Below are positions 14,401-47,685 of a stretch of 51,150 bases of DNA, one piece after another. The notes below the pieces were generated by a model. That model was not told the origin of the DNA. It did no database searches and saw nothing but the letters and a program-made list of their open reading frames with translations. Positions within the stretch are counted from its first letter, which is position 1. The number at the start of each line of letters is the position of its first letter. Origin of the DNA: Psammoneis japonica (Eukaryota); the NCBI GenBank assembly GCA_008632985.1, contig QPGO01000130.1, forward strand, positions 186,001 to 237,150, in the 5' to 3' direction. The translations under genes and the position numbers were made by a program.

Positions 14401-14700
14401 ATGTCGTTGGACAAATCGCAAGCAGATGTTCGGAGATGTCGCCTCACAAGTTTGGGTTTGGCTTGCCTCCAAAGGTGAGTCGGAGGGCCAGAAGGGCTGG
14501 ATCATCCAAAGTGACAATCATTTGGACTGTGGTGTCACTGTCCAGATGGCCATGATGGCAGGCTGATTTGCAATCAATCTTCTGGATCAGGGCCTGGGTT
14601 TGTGGGTGATGCAAGAAGCGGGCTGACACATGCAATGGATCAGGTGGCAAAGCATGTTTCCACACAACATGCAGGGAGTGAGTTCTTCGGAGATGACTCT
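9730..14700. other. TpA-depleted (hypermutated) repeat domain 2
   Basis: TA nearly absent, CG reduced, TG/CA excess. Covers the LINE and the YR retroelement. Confidence 0.85.
11462..11988 (-). repeat. Pair of about 125-bp direct repeats (11462-11586 and 11861-11988) at the 3' end of the YR element
   Basis: Shared GTCTGACATTAAAACC, TGGTTTGGCCTGGGAA, AATGTGAACA, CCCCCAGGGACCC. Arrangement fits the B1-A2-B2 split direct repeats of Ngaro/PAT elements. Confidence 0.85.
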
Positions 14701-14860
14701 GGAGTTCACTTAAGTCCCTGAACTGAATTTGAAGGATTGTTCATGGGCAAAGAGTTTGGATGGTGCTGCTTCCCCTTGTTCATTTGTTGATCGTGTCTTG
14801 TTCGGCAACTCCCAGTGGACAGACCGCCACTGCGATTCTCGCTCGCAGTAAGTGGCGACA
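11462..14860 (-). mobile_element. Tyrosine-recombinase retrotransposon (Ngaro/DIRS-like), 5'-truncated and decayed: RT, RNase H, YR
   Basis: RT: KIDCKSAC, LRLTFGGKPNP, VDVCMDN (YxDD). RNase H: RSDASEHGIGG, GDSATA, SQWFPGKKNVTSDCLS. YR: ITFKCQKN, LCPV, HSI..GAAVAM, GRWSSNAFL. Confidence 0.85.
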
Positions 14861-16439: not shown

Positions 16440-18084
16440 TTAACTGCGGTAATCAGCATTGACTGCAACGTATTCTTTTGTCAAATCGCTTCCAAGAACA
16501 CAAGCCGTGCCACTTCCAACACCGTCACCAAAGTCCACTCCGATCTCCACAAACTTTTGATGCTGAGGAAATTCACCATGCTCATCTAGCTGAGCATCCT
16601 TCATGTGATTGCTCAATTCTCGTTCCACCGCATCACCCTCCAAGACGAATTTGCCATTTGCAAAAATTTCCCGTCCGCCAAGCGTCAACACAACCTTGTC
16701 GGTCGATTTGCCGACAAAAAACTTTCCCATAAAGGATCCAATCGCTCCGGCGAGACGACCCGTGTTGGGGTCATTACCGGCAACGGCACATTTAAAGAGT
16801 GGCGAATTGCAAATGTGTCGACCGAGACGACGGGCGTCGTGGTCCGAGCCGGGGAAATTGGAAATTTGTACCCTCATGACGTGTGCCGTGCCTTCACCGT
16901 TGCGGACAATGTCGGACGACAGGCCGAGACAAACCTCGTTGAGGGCGGATTGGAATTCCGACAAGTCGACAGTCTCGGATATTTGATTAGAGGCAATAAG
17001 AGCCACAGTGTCGCTAGTAGATTCGTCTCCGTCAATGGACATGGAGTTGAAGGAAGCGTCGACGGCGCTCTTGAGCAATTTTTGTAGTGTTTCTTTTTCG
17101 ACTGTAGCGTCAGTCATGATGTAAGAAAGCATGGTTGCCATATTGGGTTCAATCATTCCTGCACCCTGATAGATGAGTAAAGGGTGGAAGTGATGACTCA
17201 AGCTGTGAGCAAACGACGTGAATCGGGAACAACATCTAGTCGAGCAACACAAAAAAGGTTCAGTTACCTTCGCAATTCCAACAATTCTAGCCCCATTCGA
17301 CAATGTCTTGCTTCGTACTTTAGGAAAGCGATCCGTCGTCATGATGGCACTTGACGCATCCAAGGCACTTTTGGATTGAAGAGCCTCGACCGCCTTGGGA
17401 GCCACGTCGGTGGCAAGCTCCTTGGCTGGCAATCTCCATCCAATCACCCCCGTGCTGGATGGCAAGACGGTTTCGGCTCCACCCTCCAAATCCAAAGCAG
17501 ATGCCACAGCCTCACACACGAGTTCGGCATCGGCCACACCGTCGCCTCCGGGACAAACATTGGAAACCTTGTTGTTAATCACAATGGCATGGAGTGGTCC
17601 GCCCTTGGCGAGACGCGACCTTCCAACCTTGACGGGAGAGCCAGGAAACTGGTTCGAAAACAGAAATCGCAATGGTGAGAAGACAAAGCTTTTCAAAGAC
17701 ATTGAATTATTCACCATGCAACATTTTAATTACCTTGTTGCTTGTAAAGACGGCAGCCCAATTGTCGGTTGCACCCTCGGTCAAGTGAATCACTGTGCAT
17801 GAAATGGGAAGATCACCCATGAGCGGCGCCTCGACCGGTACAAAGGTTCCCTTGGCGGTGCCAGTTGCAAATCCAAGAGGCAATTTAGCCACGGATTCAA
17901 GGTATTCCATGTATGTTTCCTTGGTTTCAAAGTCGGGCAAAACCACGTCGGTATCGCCGCTACGTTCTCTCAATCTTGTTCTCAAAGTAGTAGCTTTTCT
18001 AGTAGCAGTCGTAGAAAAGGCCGACACTTGACAAGTCAAGGCAGCATAAAAGCTCAATCCCATTGTAACACTTGAAAACCTCAT
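16440..18084 (-). CDS. argJ: Ornithine acetyltransferase / glutamate N-acetyltransferase, probably plastid-targeted, 3 exons (18084-17734, 17648-17268, 17165-16440)
   Basis: Spliced AKGAGMIEPNMATML autocleavage motif, plus SSTGVIG, IMTTD, DGDESTSD, RNGEG, GNDPN, NADYRS. N-terminal signal peptide ending VSA-F. Confidence 0.95.
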
Positions 18085-20978: not shown

Positions 20979-21508
20979 CTTGATTTGGTTGTCCCTCGAA
21001 TTAGCGAGTTTGTAGGGATAAGTGCTGGTGCAGGCTGAAAAGTTTGAGGTATGATCGATACCACCTTTCTTGCTGTTTCTATATAGTACCGACTCTAGAC
21101 AAGCGGTCGGTCACTACGGGTTTCCTTCGACAACAAAACAATCGAGATGGCACCTTGCCTTCGGCTTCTTCGTGCTTTCGTCGCCATCTTTTCGTGACAC
21201 GTGCGTGTTGGCGGCATTTTCGTGGAATCGTCGTACGAAACAAGCGTAAAGTTAGTCGAATGATTCAATCGCGTGTTGTACTTCAAGATGAGAATCTTGA
21301 ATACGGAGAGTGCAGTAGCGTTCACGTATGTAGGATCCTGTAGAAACACGGTAATTAAATGAATGATTCGACTAAAATGTGGCGCGAAAACTGAGAACAT
21401 CGAAAAATATCTTTTCAACACGACATAACGCAACGATCACAATACTTTCATTTGTTCTGTAGCCCTACAAGCAGTAGTTAGCTCTTGTATCACTTGCGAC
21501 ACTCGGTG

Positions 21509-23385
21509 ATGGATGGCACCACGGAAAACGACAGGGAAGCGCTCCGGGAGGATGTCCAATTGCTCAAGGTTCAACTGGAAAGTCTCGTGGCAAACCATGG
21601 CAGAGAAATCCGATCTCTCAGGGAGCAAGTGACCCGTCTGGCTTCATCGAATGGGGCACTCCGACGGGACATGGAAGCTCTCGAAATGAGGGTTGGTCAC
21701 AACAATGATGCTCTGAATCAAGCTGATTCAGATGATGATTTTGAGTTAGGCTCGATTGATTTCGGGGTCATTGATCTTCCGTCAGCAGCCGGAGATGAAG
21801 AAAACACGAGCAGAGATTCGGATGAAGTCGAGCTCGTCAAGGTTGTGCCGCCGCGACAAAATGCAAGTCAAGAGTCAAACGACCAAGTGGAAGTTATTGA
21901 GATCTCATCAACGGATGGAGATGATCAAGAAAATGTTGATGAAGCTTCAAGCAATGAGGTCAAGGTTGTTGAGGTTGTGCCGCCGTCGCCGCATGGAATC
22001 CGAGCAACGGCACGAGAAGATGCAAACGATCAAGTCGAGGATGTTGAGATCGTGTCGGCAGGTGGAGGCGAGGTTGATGAGCTTTTGCTGCCGCCGCATG
22101 GTGACCGAGAAACGACGAGAAGAGATTCAAACAACGACGTTGAAGCTGTTGAGATTTTGCCAACAGAGTCATTCTGTCGAAAAGTGGAGATCAAGAAAAC
22201 ACCGGTAGAGATTCAGACGAAGTCAGGGATGATGAAGCCATTTCGGTTGCTGACGGTCACAATGCCTCCTCCTTGGACACACCCAGTGATGCGTTTCAGA
22301 GTGTGGCTTCTTTGCCGCCGCATCAGGACCATGGTTCACACAATACCGTACCTTGCGCCAAACGGCACTCGTCATCTGGCGCACCGGCAATTGTGACTCA
22401 TCAGCCTGATGCTCCGACTTCCGAGTCTAGTGCCAGCAACGAGTTGGCGACCCTGAAAGCTACGTTTGTGGGGTCGACTCCACGATTTATAGGCTTGATC
22501 CATGTCTATGATTGGAAGAAAAATAGCTGGAGCCCGATTCTCTCCAATTATCAATCAAGCGATAGCGGAAAAAGGCTCAGAGCACAGCAAGTCCCAAAGG
22601 TGTGGAAAGATAAAGCGTGGTCCTTTCTAAAGGAGCAGTTTAGACACCTGACGGACTATTGCAAGGACAACGGAAATGGAAATGAACTTGGCCTGCTTTT
22701 TTTGGAAAAAGGTACGCAAGTAGTAACTACGATTGAATGTAAGGCTGCGGGTTTTGGTGTTGAGATCAAGCACGTTGCCACCGACGGTGAATTTCGGCGA
22801 AAAGGTTACGGTCGCATTGCCATGGCGCTGATAGTTGATGTTGCGCATCAGCTTCTTTCTCCCCGGTATTTTGATCCGCAGGTCGCCAACAAAGTGGTGG
22901 CCTTTCAGGGTTTCGCCAAAGCTAGCAAATTCTATGAAAAGAGCGGGTTTGTCGTCTTCAAGGGTGACAAGCTGGGTTTGGAAGGCAGCGGTGCGATGAG
23001 TTCCACGATCCGAAACTTCCTAAGAGGGCTAAATAGTTCAAAAGATCAAAAACTTTTGAGGGACGCTCGCAGAAACCTCCTCACCAAACGTTTGTCAGTC
23101 CATCGCACCTTGAAGAGGGAATCGATGGCACAGACGAATGCACCAGGTCCTGAAGTTCAACTGTCGTCACCAGCCAAGACAACACGCAAGCGTAAGCATG
23201 AAGAGCTGAATGAAACTTGGAAGGTGGGTGACTGCGTGATGGCTCCATGGAAAGGGAAAAGGTATGCTGGCTTAGTCGAGAGATTGCCGAGTAAATCGTT
23301 CTTCTTTTATCGCATCAGATGGATCAAGGAGAATAATTACACAGATCTACCTGTTAACGTTGTTCTTCTCCATCACGATGCGTGA
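21509..23385 (+). CDS. Coiled-coil + acidic repeats + GNAT acetyltransferase + Tudor-like protein, with a frame break near 22153-22185
   Basis: GNAT motif A VATDGEFRRKGYG and motif B KFYEKSGF. C-terminal WKVGDCVMAPWKGKRYAG. The acidic repeat GDxENTxRDSDEV continues across the frame change. Confidence 0.65.
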
Positions 23386-23799: not shown

Positions 23800-26700
23800 G
23801 GCATGACTTGATTCTTTAGGTGGCGTTAGCAACGCCTCCCTGTTGCCTACTGTCGATTCACTGACTTGATTACAAAATCGATAGACATTCCCACCATTTC
23901 AAATATTTCATTGATCGTTCGAGTATTCCACTGATGGGGTATCTCGAGGGTGAGTGGCTGGGATGGCTCGTCGACACCGGTTAAGTCGTCTTCAACCGTG
24001 GCAAGCGATTCAGGTCCTCGAACACTTTTTGTTTTCGATGGAACGACAAGCACAAGAATTTGATCAAGAGGGAAAGTCGGACATTGCTGGAACAAGAGCA
24101 GCCTTGCTGACGCAATATTATGGTCTCCACTAAAAGATACTTCGCTTGCCTCAGCAACACCTGCAGGCAGCGATTTCTTTCTCTTCCGTGAAGACCTTCG
24201 CAAGCTACTCGATGCTCCTTCTGACGCCTTGGAAAGCCACGACACCAGCAAGGACACTCCTGCTCCCAATGAGGTGCCCGACTCAAGCTAGATCACATGA
24301 AGACATATGGCAAGTGGGTCATTCTCTGGGACTTCGACTGGGTCGTCAGCGGCCGACTTCGTCTCGCTTGAATCCATACCAGTCTTTTCATTTTCCTTGT
24401 CTTGTCTGTCCTCATCGCTCTCGTTGGACGACACAGGGCATTCGATGCATCTGGGCTCAATTGAAACGTCTTAATTTCCCGTTGGCCAATATTCTGTAAG
24501 ATTTAAGAGACGAAAAATCATAATGGGAACGTGATCTGCATTCCCTTGAATCACCAAATACATCGTCACGTGGTGTCTCTTTAGCAGGGATTTCTCTAAA
24601 TCTTTTGTCCCAAAGCTCGATTTGCCGATGATATCAGTGTCTTCGCCTAGTGCGATCTTGCATAAGTCGACGAGCGACCCACGAAAGCCTGGTATCCATA
24701 ATCCGTTTTTGAAAGAAGTGCAACATGACCCTCGAGTCCGTCAAAGTGGCGAAGCTCATCCGGCGTAGACATCGACCTGCGGAAAATTTTTAATCGGTGT
24801 GAAGCAGATGAATGCAGCACCCAAGATTCCGAAAATTGAAACACAATCGATCATTGTCTGACTCATTCGCTTCAAAAGAGTCAGGCGAAAATAAAAGACT
24901 GCAAATTCTGTCCTTCAGATCCACATTTCGTTTGCCACTTTTTTCGATAGTCACCCTTTTGCCACATTGTTTCAATATCGCTTCGATGAACGAGATACCG
25001 CGGAAACGAATCCTCCAAATCATTCAAAGTTTTCAAATTTTCGTCTCGAACCTAAAAAGTGTGGTCGTTACCCATGACTGCAACCGCGTTAGTGCCCCTT
25101 CCTTGCGATCTTTGTCGCCCTGGCAGTAATCGCACCCACTCAGGGCAGTTACATTAGTTTGCGGTTTCACCCTATGGCAGTACGCTCTCGGAAATATCTG
25201 CGCAATTGCTCGCCACACATTCTACGGGACGTATCATACTCTCTTCTTGTTGTTAACACAGTCGCATTCCCCGTGATCGCCTGTAGAAGTTGGTTGACAG
25301 ACAAAATTGAAAAGAAAGGTCGGAAATGGAGGACGAAAATGAAAGGCCACTTACAATTTATATTTCCGTTCACCTTGCAGTCCATTTCGCTCCCGCGCAA
25401 ACAAAAAGAAACATCCGATAGAAAAGGGAATAGGTCAATGGCATCCAGTCCTTCACAGATGGATTCGATCAAGCCATCATGATCTTCACTCTGCGACCCG
25501 ACAGAAGTCGGATTTTGAGTTCCAGTAAACGATTCCGCCTTCTTGATGATCTCTTTCTTAAAACGTGAGCACGAAATGAAGTGCATAACTTCTTCGAGAT
25601 ACTGCGTCGCCCTCCGCTATTGCGTCGATCATATCATCATTCTGAATAGTTATGGTCTGCAAGGCTTTCGTAAACGAACAAACATCATCAAGAACAATTG
25701 TTCCAACTCTCGCTGATAAGAATGTTAGCACTCCTTACAAAACATGTTGCACTCCGGAGTGATGACACAGTCATTGATGTCCCTCCAAAAGCCTCCTGTT
25801 CTCCCATGTTTCTTGATCGATTGCTTGATCTTTCCTTAGTCTATCTTGCTCGTCCAATAACAACGATACAAATCCGTCATAAACTCCACGGGCAATAGTT
25901 TACCTCGTCGAGTAACCCGAGGATGGAGTCCTTTCTTAGCATGCTCACAAAGAAGACGTCTATGACGCAACATGTGTGAGCTTCCGTCAAATGTCACGCA
26001 AGTCCCATCTATGCACGATAAGAAGCTTCGCAACGTAGATCCGTCGACCCATACGGGCGATCTCTGTTCACCATCAGTTCCCGACAACGTCTTATTCTCC
26101 CTTCCGTCTGATTCCGTCTGGTCCGAGACTTCACTGTGCCAGTTTCGAAACATATCTTTAACAATCCCTTGGCCTCAGTTAAGCTCTCATCGATTCTGCA
26201 CATGCTGAAGGTACCCAACAAACAAGTGGAAGTCAGTACAGCACACCATATCGTTCCGTCCGTTCCAGATACACTGTTTTACAAATACCACCCAGTGTCT
26301 CCGGGCTGTCAACACCATTGTTCGATAGAAGCATACTATCGTTTGCACATTGTGCCAGATACATTGGGTCGACGTAGTACGGGTTGTACGCATTCGAGCT
26401 TCCTTTTGGAGTAGTCTGTCCCTTGTTGCTCGAGGTGTCAGCCTCCGATTTGCCGTCGCCCACACAGCCACAAGAAGAAGGAGGTTGGTAACTACAAGAA
26501 GGGCCGCCGCTCAAAATTTTTACAGCATCATCGTTGAACTCATACCACGTTCCAGTATGCCAGTCCATGGCTTCCGCAACATAGTGACCGCGATGGGCAG
26601 AATTTCCCTGGTGGTTCATCACTGCGCACAACAGATAACTCCGCGAGTTTCTGGTGCAACGATCATTGTCACAAGTTGCCGAGGCTTCGTTTGACCCTCT

Positions 26701-27790
26701 CGCGTTGGTGGGTCGATGCGTAACATGAAGAACTCGTGGAAACAGAACCTTGTCGGATAGCTTTTTCTTGGATAACGTCTTTCGATCAAACACGTAGCGC
26801 GACAGCTGAATGTTGAGCACTGGGGGAAGATCTCAAAAGGTCCCACCACCCGCTGCGCATTCTGCTTCCTCTCACAAGAGTTGCACCAGCACTGGTTATC
26901 TCCCTCCAGCATTTCCGCACACGTGCAGTGGTCAAGACATGCTTGCACTCACTGTCGGCCCCTTTGCCCTTTACAAAGGCCTCCTTTACAGTGGGCATTC
27001 CTTTGACCAATTGAGTTTTCTCTGTCTTGCTTTTTACAATTGGGAGGTTCAGATCCACAAGCTCTCGTGTCGTTCCGAGGATTTCTTACATGTCAAACAC
27101 GTGGTTTCACAGGCAGTGACCCCCTCAAAGATCCGTGGAAGCAATGTCGCCAGGTCGCGATTAGCACCCTTATTTCCATGGGTCTCCCGCGAACTTTGCT
27201 GAAAGGATTCATGCATGCTCTCAAAGAGCAAGCGCGCAAACTCGTTTGGATCCTGCATTTCACCCGTTTCCAATCCCAAGGCTTCCGAGAACTCGGCCGT
27301 GGTGATTGCACTTTCGACTCCATGAGCCATTCTTGCAAACAGCAGTTGCATGGTGGATGTCACATGATGCATTCGCTGGTTTCCGCTGTCAGGCTTTTGC
27401 CACGACAAGAGTCCGTTCAAAAAGTCATTGTTCTGCGCCAAACATTGAATCTGACTGTTGAGACAGCACGTGGATTCTTGATCCCGGGTGGAATAGAAAG
27501 CAACATAGACGACGCGACGGATCGGAATCGCCAGGCTTTGCAGAAGCATTCTTGGGGGTGAGGTTGTCGTGCCACCGCCGCTGCCGCAGTCTCGCCATGC
27601 AATTGTCCACCGAGACAGCGCTGCGCGACTGCAGTGTTGTCTCTGTGAAGCGTTCGCCACACACAATTATCAAGAAAACTTCGAATCTCGGCCTTCTGCG
27701 AGACCTTTTCACGTGTTCCCTTGCTGCCGGTGTGAACGCTTTCAGTCGATCAAATGGGGGACTGCGGTAGAACCTGGCATGAATTTACGT
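23800..27790 (-). pseudogene. Ubiquitin-specific protease (USP48-like, peptidase C19) with multiple frameshifts; ends approximate
   Basis: Cys box TC(C)LNSQIQCL, QDPNEF, LEGDNQ(C)WC, LNIQLSRYVFD, His box HQGNSAHRGHYVA...WYEFND, NAY. Pieces lie in different frames; DUSP/UBL-like region downstream. Confidence 0.8.
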
Positions 27791-28279
27791 ACATACTTCA
27801 CCGTGTTATGAAATTGATGGCACGACGAAAGCACGCTGGAAAGCCACAACTGCTTCTGACAACATTTGACAATTGGAGGAACACTCTGCTAAATGACAGT
27901 TGTGCTGTGACATATCTTACAACGAGTTGTGCTAGTTCGATGTCGGAATGGAAGTTATTCGTTGATTATAGCTCTATAAAGTATCGCTAGATAATTGCCA
28001 GCGATTTGCGCGGCAATTTGGCGAGTGATTTCCCGTGCTTCACCGTGGTGAACTTGGGAATTGTCCAAAACATTTGTTATAACAAATTTCTGAACGAAAG
28101 TTTCTATTTACATCGGATAACATATGTCTAGGACAAGCTCGATAACGTTACTTTCCTTCCAATTAGCATTTGGACGTTCTCCGCCACTTGTCAGTTTCAC
28201 CGTGCTTTCACCACGTGATTTCGATTTACAACACGGCGAAGTACTGTGCGTATAATTCTACGCTGTTTGAGTACCGCAG

Positions 28280-31200
28280 TCCCCCACTTGCCCGATTTCG
28301 AAAAACTGAAAGCGTTTGTCTCATCCTTGTCGCCCACAGCTTCTCCTGCAGCCAAGTTGTCAACATCGATAAATCCAAAATTGTCCAAAATGCAGCACTG
28401 CATGCATCACAAATCCAAACAACCCCATCTCAAACAAGCCATGTGCACTGGCACAAAAATCACGTGGAAATTTCGCGCAGAAAAAATTGTGAAAATTGGG
28501 GTTTGGGCCGATTTTTTTCTCGTGCTTCTGCCGTGCTTCTCTGCTCCACCGACACCTCAAGGAATCGTTTTCCCCTGAAACCATTGACACTTTACATGAT
28601 GACTTTTGGGGCACAAGTGACACGATTCTGTGCGCGAACACTTCAAAACTCCATTTTCAGAAACTCGGCCAACACTTCACCACGGTGCCACCACCGCAAA
28701 CATTTTCCAATGATGGAATTTTGCCAAACAGTGGACATCGTTGTGTTTGTCACAAAAAAGCAAGTGCACAAAGTGTCGGCCGTTGTGACTGAAATCGATT
28801 CCTTGAGGTCGTGGCCCATTTTTCGCAAAGCACGGGAAAAGCGCGACGAGCAAGACATTCCGCGCGAATTTTCTACGTGAGTTTTGTGCCAGAAATGGGC
28901 CCAAACCCTGTTTTTTTGGGGTTCATGCTGCAGCCCCTGCACTGGATCACCATGGAACTGTGGGAAAGTCCAAAAGTGTGGGGCAGCATCAAAATCACGC
29001 AGAAACTGCGATCGCACTTCGCCGCGCTAAAACGAGAAATGTTGAGACGGCTTGAAATGCACCACAGCCATCAATCGTGACGCACTCTTCTTTGACAAGT
29101 CATCACATTGTTGCCAAACCAACGCTCCTCTGTGTGAAAGATGGGTCCAAAGGGTGCTCATCTTGTTCTTTGGAAGACTGCAAAGCTTCCTCTTGATTTG
29201 ATGCTGCCGGTCATCCAAGAAGCAGCAAAAAGGGGTTGTTTGGAACGACAAACTCGAGCAGCGGCAGAGAGCATCGAGGTCGACTCCTCTCCCCCAAGAC
29301 AACGATTGAAGACAGTGCTTGATGCGAATCTGTCAGCACGCGAGCATGCTGGCAACCGCTCATCATTCCTCCCAGAGCATGCTGTCTTTCACGTGGCCAA
29401 GGCTCTGTCTGAGAAACTGTGCGACGTTCACATTGTCTGCAACCATCCGACGAACTGTCATGCCTCCAAGCGTGCCTCTTGCAGACGCCGTGCTGAAGCT
29501 GAAAAGGCCAAGACTCGGCTCTTCATTGCTCAATCTAATTTGCAGAGTCTCCTTGGAGCTGAAAGCGTTGAAAGTCCGGCAGACCATGCGGAGCAAGTGG
29601 ACAAGGCCCAGAAGAAGATCCGCAGCCTAGAAAGCATGCTGGGTCGCGGGTTGACACCGGATTTTCACACAAATCTTGTGAGCATGGTGGAAGAACATGA
29701 TCCACAGGGGAAAGGAGTGGTCTCCATTGTCACTGCACCAATGCAGGTGGACCCGTGTGTTGCAAAATTGGTTGTCAACTTGGGTGCCGATGCAATTGCG
29801 TCGGGTGACTCAGATTTCTCGATGCACGTCGGTCCAAATGGACTGGATGTTGTGATCAAAGACATCTCTGTTTCGAAAATGAAGGATCCCATTGCAGCAT
29901 GTCGGCTTTGCACTGGTCAGCAAAAGATTGCTGAGATTGTCGAGGAGACTCTGAGTGTGAAATTGGGGCACTCGCCATTTGAAAAAGACAAAGATGCCAA
30001 ACGCGATGGCCAAACTCCAGGCCACCCAATGTTCAGTGGGGTTGATGGAAAATTTCACAAAGCTCTGAACCATCCAAAGGAGCTGCCGTCCGGCTCGAGC
30101 AATCAACGACAGAAATCTCACCAAATCCGACTGTTCAAGCGGCGCGAGTGGACTGATCGCATGGGCCTGGGAAGAGCACGTGGCAAAGGAGAGCTCAGGC
30201 ATTGTGACGAGCACCCAACAGAAATGGTGAAAGGAAAGTCAATGAAGTGCAACAAGGAGCATGTGCCCATCAAAGCATTTGAAGCACCAAAGCCAATTGG
30301 GTCTCAGAAGAGCTTTCACTCACCTCCAAGAACTGACTCTGATGGACTGGGGACTGACCGAGAAATGCTCCGCCATGTCATCAATGCAAGTGCTCAAGAA
30401 TCTGTCTTGTCTGTTCAGACGCATCATGCGCTTGTACAAGAAGGATTGCGTGAGAGCAAAAAAACTTCTTCGCAAAAGGAAGCAACAGCCGGTGAGAATG
30501 CTGCAGGTTGATGCCATGACAAACCAAAGATCGGGCTCTTCTCACTCACTCCCAAGGAAGTGAAGCGTCGCATGGGATTTTTGAATTTGAAGCATCTTCT
30601 TGAGCACAGTGCAGTGGTGCATGGCGGCAATTTGGATGAAATGATGAAGACGGCAACCCACACGACTTTTGTTGAAGAGCTCCTCTTCACGTGCGAATTT
30701 TCATTTGGCCGAACAATGGCACGTTGGGAGGACTGGGAGAGGGAGCATGGTGCAGATCACAAGATGTTGGGAAAGGCGCTAAAATGCTGATTGAAGAAGG
30801 AGTTGGAGTGCCGTGAGCAATGGCCAATGCATGCATCATACGACGAGGATGTGAAGTTCCGGAAGCGCCAGTGGGACCGACACTTTAACCCCAAAGATGG
30901 CCACCGACCTGTGGTGCATGATGCGTCCAATGCACACACGGGAGACCCGAGCTCTGGGGATGTGAATCGATCGCTGCACAATGTGTGTTGTGGAATGTGC
31001 TGCGCCAAAGCTGGAATTGCCGCACAGCTCTGCAACTGGATTTTTGGCCTTCCTCTTGTCACAGGCCATTGTGATGATGACCAGCAGATTCGATTCACAA
31101 AGATGCTTGAGCCACAAAAACGTTTTGCTGAGAATGACAATCCTGCAGGAGGAGAGGGCACAATTGTGAAGCACTTCTTGAACACATTTGACAAAGGATG

Positions 31201-31705
31201 CCATCTGCTGTTGGAAGCAAAGCGGGAGGAGCAGCTGTGTTGCCAGCCAGACAGAGTTGACAAGCTTTCAGGTGTCAATGCACTTCGTTCAGCATGTGTT
31301 GCTGTGACAAGATCAGGCAATGAGCGAGCCGTAAAACGATGCAAACTGTCCTGGTTTCTCAGTCGTGGCATGAGAAACCAGCAATGGAGTGTTGATTTAG
31401 TTTGCGACGTCTGGGAGGCATGGACTTTCCGAGTCAACTTCATGTGTGATGCATTTCAGCAAAGGCTCATGGTTGTGTGTCAAAACAACACTCAGATCTG
31501 CACTAATTTTAGACCAGTTGCGTGGCTTTTACATGTTGTGCAGTCGCAGCTGTCGCCTTGGTTTAGTTTTTGCGAAGTCTGGGAGGCGTGGACTTTCCGA
31601 GTCAGCTTTTTGCATGATGCATTTCAACAAAGGCGCACAGTGTGTGACATCAAAATAACACTTAGATCTGTGCAGTGTTAGAACAGCTTAGTGGCTTTTA
31701 GATGG
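28280..31705 (+). mobile_element. Decayed Harbinger/ISL2EU-like DNA transposon with an XPG/Exo1-like nuclease segment, THAP-like/HTH segment and DDE transposase
   Basis: Transposase 30791-31460: VVHDASN, FDKG(C), RSGNERAVKR. Upstream ORF 29141-30511: VLDAN, IVC(D)HP, APMQVDP, AIASGDSDF (5' nuclease-like), then W...C..H. Termini not identified. Confidence 0.65.
31395..31703 (+). repeat. Duplication with about 170-bp offset at the transposase 3' end
   Basis: GTCTGGGAGGC.TGGACTTTCCGAGTCA, GATGCATTTCA.CAAAGG, CAAAA.AACACT.AGATCTG and GTGGCTTTTA each occur twice. Confidence 0.85.
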
Positions 31706-32189
31706 CAGGCCCTCTAGCTAGAGTCGTACTCCGAGTAGATGCTATCGCTCGACGACTAGCAGAGCAGGGCCCCAAAGCGATCGCGATTGTTGGATGGTGG
31801 GTTTTTGACTCCTTCGACCATTCATTTTCTACTTGATTTTCTACGGAGTTTTAGCACCGCCCCACGATTTTGACTTTCCCTCTTGCGCTCTTCCACCCGC
31901 ACGCCGCCGCGCGACCGACAACGGTCGACCAGCGTCACAGGCGATGACGTGTCCACCATGATCGCCCATCGCATCTCGCATCGCACAGGCAGAGCGAGCG
32001 CGAACGAAAAACAAAACCAAATTGAACCACCTCCTGAACTCATTTTCTTCTACCGTTATCTCTTCAAAACTGAAAAGCAACTATTTACACAGTGATTCAG
32101 TCGTTGGAGATTTGACCCAACAAGTGTTTGGAGTGGGGTGCCAAGCTTCACAAACTTTACGACAGCAGCAATACAAGAGCAACAAGAGC

Positions 32190-37700: not shown

Positions 37701-38530
37701 GGTTATACCGGAACTCTCGTGTCTCGTGTGTTCTGAGTTTTTTTTTTGTTGGTTCACACGGCGGGCAATGTTGCAACGGCTAGGGCCCTACCAGCTACCA
37801 GCGATACAGTGCTGCGGTTACAGTAAACGGAATAGTCGTCCGTGCTCTACATGAACAACATGTATGTATCTACATATGTATGTACAGTATGTACGAAGTA
37901 TGCATGTGTTACTGTACCGTTATGGACGTTATGATGTGTTTCATTTTTTGAATCACGTTTTGTCGAAACGCCACCTTTTGCTCAAACATGTCATGTTTGA
38001 GCAAACAGCAAGTTTGAGCAATTGCTCAAACATGCATGCGCCGGTGCTGCAAAACTGCCGTGCAGTGCTGCACAGCGTGACTGCCACTTTCACTGCATGC
38101 AGATGTCAGTGCAAAATGAACACAAAGGAAACAAGAAGAGCTCACAGTCGTCAGAGAAAACAACACAATCGCAGCCATCACACCATGGTGATGCCAATGA
38201 CGATTTCTCAACAACAACACCTTCAAGAAACCCAACAATCTGACAAAAGACATGCCACACAAACTTGCACATGATGATGTTGAAAGCTCCGGTGGGGCAG
38301 GCTCGCTGGGGGGAGCTGTGGCAACAAACAAGGAACAGCGTCATGCGACAACATTGTTTTGTCTTTTGTTTTGATCACAAACATTTTTCAAAGCATGCCT
38401 TGGCATTGACATGCACTGCAATGTTGGCGTTTGTTGCTCCCAGTCAAAGATGCGGCAAACAGATCACCAGCGCAGCCGCTGTCTTTGTGTCATCACAGGC
38501 CATGCATCGTCATGCTGAACAACATGACCG

Positions 38531-38935
38531 AGTGATGAGAGTTCATGTTTCTGATCTGTGGCACAGGTTGGTCATGCACATGATTTTGCTGTTGGTGTTT
38601 GTCAGAGTTTTGGCCCTCTTTCTTTGCTCATGGACCATTGGGTTTGCTGTGCCGATGTCCTTTGGTCCATCATTTTGGTCCACCTTTTTTGGTCATTGTC
38701 CAGTCTGCACTTTTCTTGTGGACCTGGCACCAAAATGGCATCTTTTCTCTCTTTGACTTTTTTGGTTGCTTTTGGAGCCCCCTTCTCCTCTTCTCACTTC
38801 TTGCAAAATTTTGTGTTCTTGAGGACCAGAGTCACTTTGACAGCTCTCTTGCTGTTGAGGCTTTCATGCTGTTTGGACAATCATTGTCACCACACCCCAG
38901 CTTGTGCTGTTGTCTGGCTCATTTCCATGGCTGTG
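38531..38935 (+). repeat. 5' LTR (approximate ends)
   Basis: Aligns along its length with 44854-45256, e.g. CCTGGCACCAAAATGGCATCTTTTCTCTCTTTGACTTTTTTGGT. Confidence 0.9.
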
Positions 38936-41900
38936 AGCTCAAGTGTTGCCATTGCTTTGAGTTGAGTCTTTTGAATCAAAACAAAGTGAAACCTCTGATT
39001 TTGCAAAAATTGGTGATTGTTCAGCAGGATCAGGCAACATCCTGGTTGGGGACGATGACCCCAATCCATTTGGGGATGATGCATCAGATGATTTGAGTGG
39101 TGAGTCTGGTCAAGATTCTCAAGGGTGTTTCTTGGCCTCTTGAGGAGGATCAAGCAATGCTGCTGCGGCAGTTGTTCCTTGAGTTGGTGGCATTGTCAAT
39201 GACATTGCTTGGACCGGTGGTCTGTGAGGAGTTGTTGATCCACACGCTGTGGCATGCAGTCCGCATTGCCAATGTCCAACGTTGTTCCATCATTCAACAA
39301 CAATTGTGCCCCATTGTTGGAAAGGTTTGGAGTTGAAGATCAATGCTGGCAAGGATTGCAAGGTGACTCTCATCAGTTGGACCAACTCTGTTGGCAAACA
39401 CCTTTTCATGAGTGGTGTGCCTGGACTTGGTGCTTCACATCCAGAGGAGAGATCCAAGGACAGGGGCACCTCAAGAGTTGAATCTTGCAATGGATTGTGG
39501 TTTGTTGGACCTGCAAGAAGTTAAAGATCATGTTCAAGACTTGCTCACAATGGGTGACCAATGTGATCATCAGAACTTGCTGTGGTCCACAGAGTTCTTT
39601 CTTGGCTCTGTTGGTGTTGCTCCACATGGTGACATCCAAAAGTGCATCAATGGACCTGCGCATGGGCTCATCATTTGCAAGCTTGTCACTGCTGAGTTGC
39701 ATTTGTCTGCTGCATCAGCTCTCCATGCGGTGGTGGACAAACTCAAGGCTGTGAAACTCAAGGAAGAACCAGGTGAGAACATCAAAAACTGTGCTGCAAA
39801 GGCAGTTGAATTGTGCAGATGTCTGGAAGGTCATCATGAGCTTCCTGAAGATGCTGCTTCAATCCTTTGCAGTGGTCTCATGACATTGACTGTCAAGTCA
39901 TTCTGGATCAATTCATGTCTCTCTTCAATGAAGTTGACATGGATCCAACAAAACATGCTTGTGGCAGCCAATCTTGTTGTGTGTGCAAATGAGTCATGCA
40001 CCAGTTTGGTGGATCGCAAAGAATGGGCACCTTTAAATGCAGGCAAGTCTGGCTCCACTGCATTTCTAAACTGCCCTCCACTGCAGAACAACAACAGTCA
40101 AGGAGGCAACAGTGGACACATGGAAAATGCCAAGGTCATGGTGGACACAGTGGTTGTGGAGATCAAGGCAGATGAGGATGTGGTCAAGGAGGTCATTGTA
40201 ATTCTTGACAATGCTGGAACACTTGCAGTCCCAGAGACCCTCACAGGATTCCTCCAAGACATGGAGAATCTCATGCTTGAGTCTCCAATGGCATGACCAA
40301 GCATTGGTGTGGCAGGTGTGGGTGTTGGGCCACTCATGAAACTGCCAATCATTCAGCTCCAGAGGGAGGCACTGATGCAAATGGTCAGAGTGCCACTGGC
40401 ACTGCTCAAGACTGATCCAAGGGTTGCACCTTGAATGCCAATGAGTGTCATGTCTCTTGGGGCCTTTTGTGCATGGTTCTGGTGCCACTCAAGCTTCCCA
40501 AGAATGTGCTTTGACCTGGAACACATTGAATTGGATTTTTGTGGGTTGTGCTTTGGTGCACAACTTGCCAAACTGGTGGGCCAGTGGATTGTTGGTTTGC
40601 TGTTCACAAAGCACCCCATTCTCTTTAACCAACTGTTCCAGAAGGCTCAACAAACAATGTTTTGTTTGACATTCTGTCATCAATTTTTCCATGTGTTGGT
40701 GATTGCTTTGATGTTTGTTGGGGTTTGTCAAGAAGTGCTGCGGCCAAGATCTTCCAAGAAACGTCATGCGACTGTTCAAGAAATCAAATGTCTGCATGAC
40801 AAAGCACCAGACTTTGATTTTAAACAATGCTGTCCTTGTTGTGATGAGTCAACTCACAAGATCATAAACCAAGATTTGGATCTGCCTGCTTCAAATGTTG
40901 TGTCGTGCATGCTCACATGCCATTTTGTGAATGTTGATTTGTGGGAACAAGTTGATCATCTTCTGATGTCCTTTTCATCCCCTCAAGACAAGCGATTTGA
41001 GATCTCATTTGATTGTGGGGCAAGTGCAACTTCCACTTTTGACAAGGAAGATTTTGCACCTGGAACTTTCAAGCCATTTGACAACACTGAGCCACTTCCT
41101 TCTTCTTCAGATGTCAGATGTCATGTTGATGTTAAAGGTGTGGAAGTTGTTGAGTGGATGGTGTTTGATGATGCCGGATGTGAGTGATGTGTCTGCACTG
41201 AGTGCTTTTGCATTTCAACCTCTCCTGTGAAGTTGTTGAGTGTTGCTCATCATGGGCACAACAAGAATGGCAGCGGCTTGGGCTGCAGGCTCAAAAAGGA
41301 TCATGCATTCTTTCATTGGCATGATGGCAGTGCTGTTGCCATGCCTCATCATGAAACTGACAGGCTTCCCATCACAATTGGAAGGAATCCTTTTTTGGCA
41401 GTGAACCAGAAGAAATGCATCTGTGCATGCATGACAGACAAATTCAACCACAATTTGTCACAGAAGCAAAAGAGACTGTTGCGGTGGCACTTTTGCTTTG
41501 GTCATCTTGGCTTTGATCACATTGAATGGTCAGTCAGGAAAGAGTGCCTTGGACATGCTGCAAGAAATGTCAGCTCTGTCACTGTCAACAATCCCAAGTG
41601 TGCCACTTGTCAACATGGTTGAATGACTCATCATCTGACCAGGACTGTGCAAACTGAGAAGGTTCTCAGTTGGGATCAATCTCTCAAGACTGACATTCTT
41701 CATCCTGGACAAGCAGTTGCTGCAGACCAGCATGTGTCCTCCATTCAAGGTCATCTGTTTGAGTCCCACAGGAAGACCAAAAAGGCAGACAAATGTGGCG
41801 GCAGAACTGTTTTTGTTGACATTGCATCCAGCAAGGTGTCAGTTTATCCTCAGGTCATGTCCAGTGCTTTCAAAACTGTCAAGAGCAAAACAGCTTTCAT

Positions 41901-44468
41901 GAGAGAGGCTGTTTCTGCTGGAGTTTCTATTCAAGCATGTCAATCAGATGATGGCATCTTTGTGAGTGAAAAATTCCTTAAGGAAATTGAGGAAAAAGGT
42001 CAGGGTGGGAAGCTGGCTGGTGTTGGCACACTCCATCAGAATGCTGTTGTCGAGCAAGCAATTTGCACTGTTGCTGAAAGGGCAAGAACTGTGATGTTTC
42101 ACACTGCAGATTGATGGCCAGATGCAGCAGAGTTGGATTTGTGGCCCATGGCCATGAGTCATTCTGTCCACTTGTGGAACTTGACCCCACAATTGGATTT
42201 TGATGGATCATGTCCCAAAGAAGTCTTCACGGAAGTGAAAGTTTCTCACAGTTCAACCCTCACAAATTGGCAGTTTGGGGATGCCTGACCTGTGTGTTGG
42301 ATCCAACATTGCAAGATGGCAAGAAAATTCCATGTTGGAAGGCCCAAAGTTGCAGAGGACAGTTCATGGGTCACTTGTCTGTCCATGCAAGCAATGTTGG
42401 TTTAATCCAAAACCTCAAGAGCAGTTCTACATTGCCTCCATTCCATGTTGTTTGCAACAATTGGTTTGAGATGGTTCACTCGGATGATGAGCGGAGGCCA
42501 CCACGCAATTGGTTGGACCTCCTCACCACTTTGAGATGTTGTGTGGATGCCAATGATGGCTTGGCATTGCCTCCATTGTCAGATGATTGGCTCGCTGCTG
42601 AAGAATTGCACAATCAACCACATGCCAAACAGGAAGAGTCAAGGAGGCAATGACAAGCATGAGTGTTGGTGCAGATAGAACAGAGGGAGAGGATGCCTGG
42701 ATTGCCTGGGGCACCTTCTTCTTCTCAAAGATGATCCAATGCTCCTGGATGGTTGAGTGTTCCATGTTCTGATGATGCTTCACCAGATCTTCCATTGTCT
42801 CCAGATTGCATTTATGATGAAGTCGCTCCTCCAATGTTGAATCTCCTTTGGCTCCAGCTGACATGACAGAGGCTCCAGAGGGAGACTGCAGAGTTCCCAG
42901 ATCTCAAAAAGTGCCTTTGACCACCAATGATGATGACCATTTCCCAGAAGCTCCAGATGCCACAACTCTGATTCAGACATGCTCTGGAAGAATGGCTTGT
43001 TCTCCAGATTGTTGTGGCTGTGAAGGAACAAATGAACATGGTTGTGATGGGCATGCTCTCAAGGCGTGGCTTTTTTCATTTCCAACTTAACTTGTTGGTT
43101 CAAGTCTGGTTGCAGCACAGTGGCATTTGCAAAGATTCACACAATGTTTGCTGACCTCGACAGTGATGGCATCGATGCTGCACATCCACTGTCGGCACAT
43201 TTGTTGGATTCTTTTGCAAGCAAGAAGACTCGCAATCCTGATGCTCCTTCACATCATGAAGCAGTGGCAAGGCCATGTGTGGAAGAGTTCAAGAAAACCA
43301 TGCATTCTGAGATTAATGACTTGATGTGATGCAATTCATTTGCTCCAGTGCTGCTGCATGAGTTGGTGCCATCAAATGCAAATGTTTTGCCTGGTGCTTG
43401 GGCATTTAAGATCAAGAGACACCCTGATGGATGTCTCAAGAAGTTCAAGGCGCGGTTTTGCATGCAAGGGAACCATCAACAAGAAGGGGTTGATTTCTTT
43501 GAGACTCACACTCCAGTGGTCCAGCAGAGCATGGTTTGGTTGCTCGTGAGTCTGTCAAATCTGTGCAGATTGGCATCTTGTCCAGTTCATTGTGTCTTTG
43601 CTTCTGCTCAGGCAGAAGTTGAAGAGGATGTTTGTGTTGAATTACCCAAGCTCTGTGAGATGGAACATGAAGGTGACTGCATTTTAAAGCTCAACAAGAG
43701 CTCACATGGATTGCATCAAGCCACAGCTGCATGGTTCCAGCATCTGTCCAAGGGTCTGGAAGAGGTCAGATTGCACTCCAGCAAGAATGATCCATGTTTG
43801 TTCATTGGCAAAGATGTTGTTTGTTTTGTGTGTGTTGATGATTGTTTGTTCTTTGTAAAGGATCTTACAAAAATCAATTGTGTTGTGAGTGAAGTCAAGG
43901 CCAATGATTGTGAACTTGACATCAAGGACAATGCAAGAATGGTTTTCTTGGCATTGACATTGATGGGGACAATGAGGCTGGGACTGTCCATCTCACTCAA
44001 AAGGGTCTCATCAAAAAGATCATTGCTGCTGTGAACATGGAGGATTGTCATGTCAAGAAGACTCCGGCCAGCTCAGCTCCTTTGGCTGCTGATGCTGACA
44101 GATCCGAGCAAGTCAAATCATGGATCCACGCAAGTTTCATTGGCAGCATGCTCCATTTGGCTTCCAATGCAAGGCCTGATGTCCAACGTGTGGTTCACAG
44201 CTGTGCCAGGTTCAAGCACAATCTCAAGAACAGCCATGAGGAAGTGGTGAAGTGGATTGTTGGGTGTCTTCAAGGCATGAAGGATCTCTCAGGCAATGAG
44301 AGTTCCACCACCCATGAAAGAGCTTGTCAAAGAGGCTTCTTCTTTGATGAGCATCTGAAATGTTGTTCCACTCTGCCAGTTTTGAGGATGACAACAGTGC
44401 TTTGATGTTGGCAACAATGCCAAAGATGACTCCATGCACCAAGAACATCAGGGTCAAGTGTCCCTTTT

Positions 44469-44516
44469 CAAGTCTCATGTTTCAAAACCTGACAAGTCTC
44501 ATGTTTCAAAACCTGA
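44469..44516 (+). repeat. Perfect 24-bp tandem duplication in the copia RNase H region
   Basis: CAAGTCTCATGTTTCAAAACCTGA twice. Confidence 0.95.
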
Positions 44517-44853
44517 CTCTGTGATTTGCACTCAGAAGATTGCCAGTGAAGAGCAGTGGGCTGACACTTTGACAAAGGGTTTGGTGCAAGAGAAGTTTGA
44601 TTGTTTGTGGAAGAAGGTTGTGGGGTGTTGAGATGTGGTGGATTCATTCATGTGCATGTTGATTTGAGTTAAAATGCATGTGTTGCACACAAAAAATGGG
44701 GTGATGGTGATCAGGTGTGATGACTGGGGTTGTTGCATCTCTGCATGTGGTTTCATGTCATTGCATGATGGGTTGTGTTTTGGTGCAAACTTTGTTTTGA
44801 AATCTCAGTGGGACAATCTGACATCTTGAAGTCAACATCTTCTCAAGAGGGAG

Positions 44854-45256
44854 AGCAACAAGAGCTCCAGTTTCTGATCTGTGATGTGGGTTGGTGATGC
44901 ACGCGATTTTGCTGTTTTGGTGTTTGTGAGAGTTTTGGTCCTCTTTCTTTGCTTGTGGACTGTTGAGTTTTATGTGCCAATGTCTTTTGGTCCATCATTT
45001 TGGTCCACTTTTTGGTCATTGTCCAATCTACACTTTTCTCATGTGCCTGGCACCAAAATGGCATCTTTTCTCTCTTTGACTTTTTTGGTCACTTTTAGAG
45101 CTCCCTTCTCCTCTTCTCACTTCTTGTGGATTTTCATGTTCATGAGGACCAGGATCACTTCAACAGCTCTCTTAACATTGAGCAGGCTCACATGCCATTT
45201 AGGCAATTGTTGTCACCCCAGCTCATGCTGTTGTCCGGCTCATTTCCGTGACTGTG
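44854..45256 (+). repeat. 3' LTR (approximate ends)
   Basis: Immediately follows the polypurine tract and aligns with the 5' LTR. Confidence 0.9.
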
Positions 45257-46299
45257 CATGTTTGAGCAATTGCTCAGCTCAAACTCTTGGTTGGACAAAA
45301 AGCCAAGACTGGAACTCTTGGTTGTGACCATCAAATGTTGCTTGGTGTTGTGTTCTTGCTCATGTCCATTGTGATTGTGCACATGCACATGTTTGAGCAG
45401 TTTTCCCACATGGTGCTGCTTGCCTGCCTGCCTGCTGGCCTGCCTGCATCATGGCCGACCGCAAGCAAAAAACAGGTCTGTCCTCTTCCAACCAGTCTGT
45501 CCTCTTGCAAGAGCAAACTTTGTAAACCCACTCTAAGAGTGGCTTCCCATTGTTTCACATGCAAAACCCACCTGCTAAAATGGTCAGAAGGTCAACAGAG
45601 ATCTTTGTGAAAACAGCGGCATAAAAGAGTGTTGCATCATAGCACAATCAGGGGCCAATGATGGAACATCACCATTTTCTGTAAAAAATCCATGGTGTGA
45701 GAATTTACAGAGATTTTTCTGGGATCAGTTTGATCATCAATTGTCACCATTGTTGTGTGCTTTCAATGTTGTCCATTTCAAATTCAAAATTGCATCTCTG
45801 AAAGACCACCCTCTTGCTCACTGCAACCACCACATCAAGCCCTCCACAGTGTTGTGTCCTTGTTGTTCATCATGGCATCAAAGCAACTGCCTCATCTGGC
45901 CCACCACAGTGCATCCTCTTTGATTGTCGCATCAACAAAAGACTCTGATGATCAAAACAAAAGCAGCCTGCACCCATGATCTGGTTGCCTGGCAAGCTCC
46001 TTCAAAAAAAGCTACAATGAAGGTTGTCAAGACTGCAAAAGCAAAACCTGCCACATGGATTCATTCCAGGATTGGCACTCAGCCACAACTTCAAAAAGGA
46101 TGACGTGTGCAATGCACTCAAGAAATAAAAACAGGTGGCTGCCAATGCAAGTGAGTTGCACACCATGCCGGTGCTGCCACATCACAAACTCCTTCACCAG
46201 TCATCACTCCATCAACTTCTGTAAAACATGCCAAGGGAGGCAGACCCAAAAGAGCCACAGCAAAAGCAGCCACATAAAAGCAAGCAAACACCAGTGCAG

Positions 46300-46800
46300 C
46301 ACATGTGCACGCAACTGAAGACCTCCTCAGGAGACATCACGAGTCCTCAAAAAAACTTCCCCTGGGCACTCTAGACCAAATTGTTGCCCAAGCAAAACAA
46401 AAGCATTTTTTGGATGATGAAGTCACACTGTCCAAACACACAACAAACAAACAAACAAACAAACAAGCACTCCAAAATGAGTCAAACCCACAAGGTCTCC
46501 ATTCACAGTGGCTCCACTGAAACCCACACCAGTCAAGCACTTGATGGTGTTGCAGCTGTGTCAAGTCACTGTTGAAACAGAAAGAGTTTCTTGAAGCTGC
46601 CAACTTCCTCATCAAAGGATCCGAGATGGAGAAAGAAGTGGTCAAATGGAGCAGGAAAACTGTGGCTGGGGGAACCATCCAATGAAGACAATCCATTGGT
46701 CAAGCTGGGATCCAAGTGCTGCCAGGGCTTCATGAAATGGACAAGGATGAATTGGCAACAAAACAAAATTAACTTGTACAAAGGTGCCAAAAGGCAGAGG
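46300..46800 (+). mobile_element. Decayed pogo/Tc5-like transposase N-terminal (HTH) fragment
   Basis: KLPLGTLDQIVAQAKQKH, LKQKEFLEAANFLIKG, KLGSKCCQGFMK resemble CENP-B-type HTH regions of diatom pogo-like transposases (recognised by motif only). Confidence 0.45.
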
Positions 46801-47685
46801 ACAGTTTGGTTTTTTACTTGCAGCATGCATGCCTGCCTGCCTGTGACCTGTCTGCCTTGCCTGCCCACCTGAGCCCTGCCCACCTGAGCCCTGCCCCCAG
46901 TGTTCCTGTGCTCTCCACTGGCAGTGGCTCTGGCAGAGCAGCCACCAGAGCAGAGCCAGGGCCCTGCTGTGCAGCATTGCAGGCTGCAGGGCTGGGCCCT
47001 CCAGCTGCTGCCCCCTCCCCCCCCCCAGAGTGCACTTGCCCCCTCCCTGCTGCCTCAGAGGCGGGCCCTGGCATGGCTCCTGTCTCCAGGTTTTCCTGCC
47101 TCAGGAGTGGCTGTGGTTGTTGTGCTGCTGCTGGTGGTGGTTGCTGTGGCAGTTGTGCTAGATGGACGGGCATCGTGCTGGCACTTTGGGCATTTGTGGG
47201 GCACATTGTGTGTTTTTGCCCCTGGCTGCTGAGCGGCTCTTCGATTTCATTGAAAAGGCATCTGTGGCAGAAAATGAAAGGGGTGGGGTTTTCCCATGAA
47301 TGAAGCAGTGGTGGAAGGTGTCCTGTGCCTGGTGATGGCATTTAAACTGTCTCTTGGGCTTGCTGCAAGCTCTTTAGAAGAATGTTTGAAGCAGTCGATG
47401 GGCAATGAGGTATCTCATGTTTGTAACCATTCATTAGGCTTTCAATGAACTCAGGGGCAACGGATTCTTGCTATCAGGAACTACGAATTTCAACGGAAAT
47501 AATAATTTATCATGTTACAACGCTTTACTTTATTCAATAATTTTTTTCATAATATTATCTTCCGTTGGAAATTTCGAATTTTTTTGAAATCATAAGAACG
47601 GGAGAGAGAGAGCAGGTTTTTTTTCTCATCTTCCCTTCTCGCACTTGCTTGTCTTTTATGCGAGGAACGGATGAAAGAGTGCGCA

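Follow-up and report, generated by a model that had tools for sequence, protein, structure and literature searches.

Near-complete TA loss uncoupled from CG loss in a putative dead transposon copy of the diatom Psammoneis japonica

Can a genome strip the dinucleotide TA from a transposon copy and leave CG largely in place? The question is raised by a 51,150-nt stretch of Psammoneis japonica contig QPGO01000130.1, hereafter the window, in whose coordinates all positions are given. At 29040-31480 this diatom DNA carries a transposon-derived block in which TA has almost disappeared and CG remains frequent. From the letters of the sequence, a preliminary description had proposed that TA conversion is faster than, and no by-product of, the deamination of 5-methyl-CpG (5mCpG), that the copy is not very old, and that blocks lacking both dinucleotides may be older. 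Having followed up these proposals, we consider it likely that a dead transposon copy underwent conversion of TA to CA or TG in place, by a process separate from 5mCpG deamination and some five to seven times as fast.

Few TA amid frequent CG is an accurate account of the block, since exactly 8 TA (observed/expected ratio, o/e, 0.05) and 98 CG (o/e 0.64) are counted in its 2441 bases, where CA and TG stand at o/e 1.47 and 1.66. Host windows of the same length (n = 276) contain 65-120 TA (median 84) and 93-163 CG (median 143); TA in the block is some tenfold scarcer than anywhere in host DNA, and CG is at the low end of the host range. Even with the lowest host-like expectation, 49 TA, the Poisson probability of 8 or fewer is 5e-13. 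Judged by its TA positions, the full TA-poor, CG-retaining zone extends beyond these coordinates to 28273-31503 (no strand assigned), with 12 TA (o/e 0.06) and 139 CG (o/e 0.69) at a GC content of 0.498, against 0.475 in flanking host DNA. The CG-rich strings quoted by the preliminary description lie at 29336, 29999 and 30139. Only 4 of the 16 dinucleotides depart from host DNA in the zone, namely TA (o/e 0.06 versus 0.54), CG (0.69 versus 1.00), CA (1.44 versus 1.21) and TG (1.65 versus 1.14). The remaining 12 are at most 0.15 away from host values; AT, AA and TT, for instance, have o/e 0.91, 1.30 and 1.26 in the zone and 0.93, 1.17 and 1.19 in the host. Stop trinucleotides in the zone comprise 147 TGA, 9 TAA and 7 TAG.

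Judging from its reading frame and homologues, the block appears to be a dead copy, shortened by an internal deletion, of a large DNA transposon of PIF/Harbinger type that also carries a 5'-nuclease-like domain. The 456-aa open reading frame (ORF) described as lacking Tyr is indeed present at 29141-30508 on the plus strand, with 0 Tyr, 23 His and 10 Cys. It forms the first part of the transposon frame, contains a putative FEN1/XPG-like 5'-nuclease domain with a conserved D-S-D motif near residue 225, and is 47% identical to residues 1-334 of the homologue P0002. A C-terminal transposase-like domain follows in the same frame (30512-31480, plus strand), with the motifs VVHDASN, GHCDDDQQ and SGNERAV and 44% identity to the homologue P0003, and its conserved Tyr positions are occupied by His or Cys. 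In the alignments about 740 P0002 residues (335-1075) have no counterpart, placing the internal-deletion junction approximately at 30065-30080 (plus strand). Two in-frame TGA codons interrupt the plus-strand frame, one in a poorly conserved linker (30509-30511, X458) and the other at a position that is Arg in both P0002 and P0003 (30788-30790, X551), the change expected of a CpG-type CGA to TGA mutation. With these, the frame has 2 stops in 781 codons, where the five alternative frames have 12-39, and its alignments to P0002 and P0003 reveal no frameshift; for both reasons the copy would have been a sound gene shortly before conversion.

The family assignment draws on several kinds of homology. 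P0001, an 847-residue read-through of the element frame (to 31681) with X at both TGA stops, is related to P0002 (1377 aa; 47% identical over both ends) and P0003 (478 aa; 44% over the C-terminal half), and an exhaustive search with P0003 as query returned 646 clusters at E<=1e-3. In Pfam, P0001 had no match and P0003 no DDE_Tnp_4 match, whereas DDE_Tnp_4 (PF13359) was found in 19 of the 27 homologues scanned (E<=0.01), 13 of which exceed the 24.8-bit cut-off; the same 27 include 2 with a Ulp1 protease domain, and weak THAP matches are present. At the N-terminal end, P0002 matches XPG_I below cut-off (E 2.5e-4, 21.8 versus 24.9 bits). A predicted model of the homologous N-terminus of the metagenome locus L001 (predicted local distance difference test, pLDDT, 69; predicted template modelling score, pTM, 0.66) gave 34 structure matches at E<=1e-3, with template modelling scores of only 0.28-0.43; all the matches listed (32 of the 34 at that threshold) are FEN1, EXO1, GEN1 or Rad2, and XPG follows just past the threshold at 1.3e-3. 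Neither a convincing pair of terminal inverted repeats nor a 3-base target duplication, both typical of PIF/Harbinger transposons, was found bracketing the element, the best candidate for the repeats being 14 nt at 29053 and 31445; hypermutation may have erased the terminal repeats. Rfam gave 0 matches in the window.

The proteins indicate what the missing TA once encoded. Ancestral states were inferred from homologues 35-68% identical to the copy. In the 15 columns where all homologues have Tyr, the element copy has His in 8, Cys in 5, Arg in 1, Phe in 1 and Tyr in none, and it keeps other all-conserved residues (Phe 14/15, Trp 6/7, His 8/9, Cys 8/8). Over the strongly conserved columns of 54 homologues, Tyr is kept in 0 of 6 and other residues in 130 of 144. 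Each of the six replaced Tyr is conserved in 73-98% of 25-46 homologues and lies inside the catalytic domain, and among 113 homologues covering at least 3 of these 6 columns, P0125 is the only one besides the element copy that is Tyr-free there. P0001 as a whole contains 1 Tyr (0.12%) and 8.6% His+Cys, compared with family medians of 3.65% and 4.7% (150 proteins). Single transitions of TAY yield His or Cys codons. CpG decay cannot explain the whole anomaly, because a change from Tyr to His or Cys is not obtainable from CpG. TA was lost by mutational conversion to CA or TG, and the deficit is very unlikely to be a native composition.

DNA comparisons point to the same ancestral state. The metagenome loci L001 and L002, which belong to the same transposon family, have a TA o/e of 0.58, and at their within-codon TA (n = 50) the element copy has TG 20 times, CA 12 times and TA once. 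A wider set of homologue TA sites (n = 85) corresponds in the window to 28 TG, 22 CA and 2 TA. A composition free of TA or Tyr in active relatives, which would have undercut the original proposal, is therefore not what the family displays: homologues carry Tyr and both loci carry TA. We also considered whether conversion ran in processive single-strand patches. The Tyr-derived outcomes read HHHHHHHHCCCC (2 runs, permutation p 0.0035), but the 50 wider L001/L002 sites are well mixed, and the idea was rejected.

Closer relatives come from X1, a public sequencing run, whose contigs at least 85% like the element were compared over an 8-kb stretch; site-level results are drawn from 40 of 569 differences. 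Summed contig depth in X1 is 160-320 over the element body and about 60-130 over host parts, and the element is multi-copy. Against the window, the contigs show 95 A>G, 103 C>T, 97 G>A, 87 T>C and 97 transversions. Contigs read TA, against CA or TG in the window, at 28990, 28996, 29000, 29332, 29524 and 29825, the last of which turns His230 into Tyr. At a further five places (29394-5, 29848-9, 30264-5, 30321-2 and 30379-80) they show the opposite outcome, TG for CA or CA for TG. Such double differences imply an ancestral TA that was resolved differently in separate copies, after their separation. The window itself contains similar pairs. The 3' end of the frame (copy a, 31392-31535, plus strand) is duplicated at 31558-31704 (copy b, plus strand, with several TA left in its non-coding part), and one Tyr-equivalent codon is TGT (Cys) in copy a and CAT (His) in copy b. 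Moreover, a Copia retroelement has its 5' long terminal repeat (LTR) at 38538-38935 and its 3' LTR at 44861-45256, both on the plus strand, in a comparison block lacking both TA and CG and with an RVT_2 match at 43330-44034. The two LTRs of one element are identical at insertion, and this pair now shows 13 CA/TG double differences in 391 aligned bases. Because the LTRs of one insertion diverged after insertion, the change occurred in resident DNA. Conversion took place in place and independently in different copies, by single transitions at TA on either strand, within certain repeat blocks that have sharp edges.

How does this loss relate to that of CG? In the host DNA of the window, TA o/e is 0.49-0.64 and CG o/e 0.76-1.05. 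TA-poor blocks lie between the host genes at 1-6900 (TA o/e 0.05, CG o/e 0.13), 9730-11200 (0.10 and 0.31), 11200-14710 (0.08 and 0.32) and 37931-47400 (0.07 and 0.15), and a second CG-retaining block, an unclassified repeat at 49640-50480, has 3 TA (o/e 0.07) and 33 CG (o/e 0.64), the same pattern as the element copy, as had been noticed from its letters. Throughout these blocks CA and TG are raised, and TA sits at a floor of 0.05-0.10 while CG varies fivefold; CG in the element copy (0.64-0.69) is well above the 0.13-0.32 of the four blocks listed first. Among 300-base windows (n = 170), 26 are low in TA with CG mid or normal, and only 1, a borderline case, has normal TA with low CG. The expectation that TA saturates first is thus matched by the order of loss when TA o/e is set against CG o/e in five blocks of this one window.

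Within the element copy, TA loss is uncoupled from CpG loss. From baselines of 0.45-0.58 for TA and 0.91-1.05 for CG, the surviving fraction comes to about 0.09-0.11 (TA) and 0.61-0.70 (CG), and 29040-31480 lacks about 80 TA and about 40-60 CG. Of the within-codon CG of L001/L002 (n = 53), 18 are kept in the copy, where other dinucleotides are retained at 29-69%. At conserved Arg columns (n = 31) it has 20 CGN, 4 AGR and 5 CpG-type changes (3 CAA, 1 TGT, 1 TGA), so that 20 of 25 conserved CGN Arg codons survive. Since TA is gone while CG is largely intact, CpG methylation cannot have produced the TA loss as a side effect, and the proposal that TA loss is no by-product of CpG loss withstands the comparison, with about 90% of expected TA gone against about 30-40% of CG. 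That TA conversion is also the faster process stands in a conditional form: the rates of TA and CG loss differ by a factor of 4.7-7.0 if both clocks began together, and only under that common start.

The claims about age fared less well. An intact frame had been taken as a sign of youth; the 2 stops in place of 12-39 agree with this, but ORF length overstates youth, because TA-free DNA has almost only TGA stops. The greater age suggested for blocks without TA and CG is not borne out by non-target divergence, which by rough measures is similar in the element copy (14 of 144 conserved non-Tyr residues changed, an upper bound that counts subfamily differences) and in the Copia LTR pair (25 differences in 391 bases, 11 transversions and 14 transitions). 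Differing CpG methylation of element classes would explain the CG difference between blocks equally well.

This last point leads to the alternative of a single system that attacks TA and CG alike, as the self-complementary pyrimidine-purine steps, CG surviving in the element copy because that copy is un-methylated or only lately methylated at CpG, with blocks differing by methylation or class and not by age. Such a system would account for CA and TG as the common end state, for the similar floors of the oldest-looking blocks (TA 0.05-0.07, CG 0.13-0.15), for the similar non-target divergence just given, and for the fact that blocks lacking both dinucleotides include a Copia retroelement, the element copy being a putative DNA transposon. 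We nevertheless regard it as rather unlikely, since the chemistries are opposite (A:T to G:C at TA, G:C to A:T at CG), TA loss is complete where CG is still in the host range (98 versus 93-163), and the reverse order of loss occurs in no block. A general pressure from AT to GC in repeat chromatin, such as GC-biased gene conversion, is barely credible: the GC content of the zone does exceed that of the flanking host DNA, but this pressure is contradicted by the unchanged AT, AA and TT, by simple arithmetic the gain is what some 100 TA conversions, offset by some 40 CG losses, would give, and GC is host-like in blocks without both TA and CG.

Two further explanations would deny that the resident copy was converted at all, and we think both very improbable. 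One is native composition, in which the active lineage evolved TA avoidance, for example while escaping a TA-directed host factor, and the copy inherited it. The good state of the frame (2 stops in 781 codons) would fit, as would P0125, which comes from a different subfamily and is Tyr-free with 8 of 9 outcomes in common. However, all six conserved catalytic-domain Tyr are replaced, closely related X1 contigs keep TA or have the opposite outcome, and the listed X1 differences suggest that copies differ mostly at former TA sites, without sharing these changes; TA is also absent from non-coding parts of the zone and from an unrelated foldback element within it, the Copia LTRs diverged after insertion, and the copy itself bears the deletion of about 740 residues and two stops. 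The other is an assembly or base-calling artefact, with modified TA (and CG) miscalled as G or T in long reads. Modified bases give systematic nanopore miscalls in this direction, and at some listed places the sole X1 contig has TA against CA or TG in the window. Yet an artefact predicts changes towards TA only, and X1 shows swaps between CA and TG at 5 listed element sites; the counts of A>G (95) and T>C (87) are on a par with those of C>T (103) and G>A (97); we reason that a palindromic site miscalled on both strands would yield mixed letters, CG and TA among them, in place of the near absence of these two; the host ORFs of the window are intact; and the homologues P0125, P0180 and P0292 share the Tyr-poor, His+Cys-rich pattern.

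In-place conversion by a separate process remains our preferred explanation, and it would proceed as follows. Once the copy had parted from its relatives, almost all of its 5'-TA-3' sites would have been altered in the DNA, each by a single transition, T to C giving CA and A to G giving TG, both of which amount to A-to-G on one or the other strand; CpG decay would be the work of a separate agent, modest in the element copy. Conversion was presumably directed at silenced repeats, by an agent that would recognise TpA, a self-complementary step, in silenced chromatin. For the chemistry, our leading but tentative guess is that an enzyme deaminates adenine where it follows T; a mutagenic base modification at TpA, on A or T, is a second and doubtful guess. 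Whether the diatom possesses a dedicated mutator that makes A-to-G changes at 5'-TA-3' on both strands of silenced transposons, faster than and independent of CpG decay, we put at not quite an even chance. The 3' neighbour of the few TA left in blocks 1-6900 and 37931-47400 is A in 54% (host 22%) and T in 9% (host 26%), which suggests that TAA/TTA is a poor substrate. In the full-text literature searched, which did not cover subscription journals, we found no account of repeats, diatom or other, in which TA is converted to CA/TG, and the available parts of PMC2806351, PMC9998398 and bioRxiv 10.1101/2025.10.24.684338 contain nothing on such conversion in repeats.

Several observations weigh against in-place conversion or limit its reach. 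Ancestral states rest on the 35-68% identical homologues and one window, and not on the family's own consensus. P0125, only 57% identical, is also Tyr-free: of the Tyr-equivalent columns examined, 0 of 12 have Tyr, 11 have His or Cys and 1 has Phe, and of 9 sites at which P0125 and the element copy each carry one of these residues, the His-or-Cys outcome is shared at 8. Such sharing is unexpected for independent random outcomes (estimated p about 0.02-0.03), and the preference for the 3' neighbour is too weak to explain it. P0180 and P0292 (the latter from an ENA assembly) are Tyr-poor and His+Cys-rich on shorter stretches. X1 has no recorded library type, the conclusions drawn from it depend on 40 of 569 differences, and at several listed places its only contig differs from the window, so X1 does not bear out the copy base by base. 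CG is eroded too, to o/e 0.64-0.69 against 1.0 in the host. The non-coding tail at 31504-31860, which partly duplicates the 3' end of the element, still holds 18 TA (o/e 0.75). Finally, a TA-rich multi-copy element adjoining the zone (27746-28295, TA o/e 0.71) was left unconverted, so repetition alone is insufficient to provoke conversion.

This neighbour measures about 550 bases, with 24-nt inverted repeats (88% complementary), a CG o/e of 1.34 and a summed X1 depth of 590-1330, and it looks like a young miniature transposon untouched by the TA process. Inside the zone and upstream of the transposon frame lies a separate foldback element (28448-28915, no strand) built of nested inverted-repeat pairs I1, I3, I6 and I7; it has 2 TA and by far the highest X1 depth, 3700-4500 against about 60-130 in host parts. 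The unclassified repeat occurs as two opposite copies, at 9309-11201 (minus strand) and 49605-50648 (plus strand), which are 37% identical over 198 aa and share the motif FLLPFT.DHLGG; both are TA-free, with CG o/e of 0.31 and 0.64, respectively. Pfam returned no match for the frames of 49820-50479 and 9309-10091, and at only 37% protein identity a DNA-level alignment of the two repeats was unobtainable. In the converted blocks 1-6900 and 37931-47400, long spurious ORFs occur on both strands, and the six frames of the latter block contain 546 TGA, 52 TAA and 16 TAG. Three ORFs of the Copia element, 778 aa in total, contain 0 Tyr. The first converted block also has tandem repeats at 2292-2571 (138-base units, 96% identical) and 3921-4535 (units of about 162 bases, 76-88%).

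The host genes of the window encode FG-GAP, ArgJ, AMPK beta, GNAT, ubiquitin hydrolase, S49-like, poly(A)/TUTase-like and trypsin-like protease proteins. Best matches to the ArgJ frame (16440-17729) are diatom proteins, the top one at 73%, and raphid pennates (Amphora, Seminavis, Nitzschia, Epithemia) match at 65-68%; a protein atlas gave no usable match for one neighbouring gene. The 5' half of the ubiquitin-hydrolase gene (27049-27666, minus strand) has 5 TA (o/e 0.15) and 1% Tyr, and its 3' half (26233-26832) is ordinary. A 511-base X1 contig of single-haplotype depth on the 5' half has 11 differences, with CA/TG doubles among them (27464-5 and 27725-6); the process may have leaked into the gene, or an allelic difference or a paralogue may be responsible. 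An acidic low-complexity protein is encoded by a host ORF at 21482-22396, which has 6 TA (o/e 0.11) with normal CG, and because this ORF is natively TA-poor, short TA-poor stretches can arise by composition alone.

What would follow from conversion at TpA? To our knowledge, the mutational processes well described for transposons in resident DNA all act on cytosine, namely repeat-induced point mutation (RIP), 5-methylcytosine decay and APOBEC-type enzymes. Removal of TpA by A:T to G:C changes would imply a different enzyme or base modification in diatom heterochromatin. A dedicated TpA mutator, if real, would represent a genome-defence chemistry without a described counterpart and a mirror image of fungal RIP, erasing the Tyr codons and TAA/TAG stops that RIP creates, and an adenine-directed DNA deaminase, if one is behind the conversion, would interest base-editing research. 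In practical terms, gene finders will call long false ORFs in converted repeats, where stops are almost only TGA; Tyr-free, His/Cys-rich 'proteins' in diatom and marine metagenome databases, such as P0125, P0180 and P0292, may be relics; and the dating of repeats from overall divergence would be badly biased.

Among known systems, the element itself resembles PIF/Harbinger transposons in the C-terminal DDE_Tnp_4 domain of most family homologues scanned, and differs in that the family proteins are far larger (up to 1977 aa), with a putative N-terminal FEN1/XPG-like domain and, in some, a Ulp1 protease. As for the mutations, 5mCpG deamination likewise acts on a self-complementary dinucleotide, with TG or CA as its end products. 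This decay is evident in blocks 1-6900 and 37931-47400 (CG o/e 0.13-0.15) and has begun in the element copy (5 of 31 Arg columns), but it cannot remove TA, which here is about 90% gone with the CG count inside the host range. The available part of PMC9998398 reports DNMT4 in 8 pennate and 23 centric species of 60 diatom species.

The A-to-I editing by ADAR, ADAT and TadA shares with the conversion described here a change from A to G next to a 5' T/U. The target of ADAT and TadA is A34, which follows an invariant U33, and mRNA editing in fungi shows a strong preference for U at -1. These enzymes take RNA as substrate, and their marks reach the genome only via reverse transcription; here, in contrast, a putative DNA transposon is affected and the Copia LTRs diverged after insertion. 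A natural adenine deaminase that works on DNA and attacks transposons is not known to us. In Neurospora and other ascomycetes, RIP is similar in being a dinucleotide-specific transition hypermutation of transposon copies, which alters DNA in place on both strands, independently in each copy, and ruins conserved residues as well as reading frames. The changes made by RIP run from C to T, chiefly at CpA, which creates TpA and lowers GC; RIP acts on duplicated sequence and depends on a RID/DNMT4-type methyltransferase and a premeiotic stage. In P. japonica, by contrast, TpA is destroyed by A:T to G:C changes, CA and TG rise, GC is slightly up, and a neighbouring multi-copy element stays untouched.

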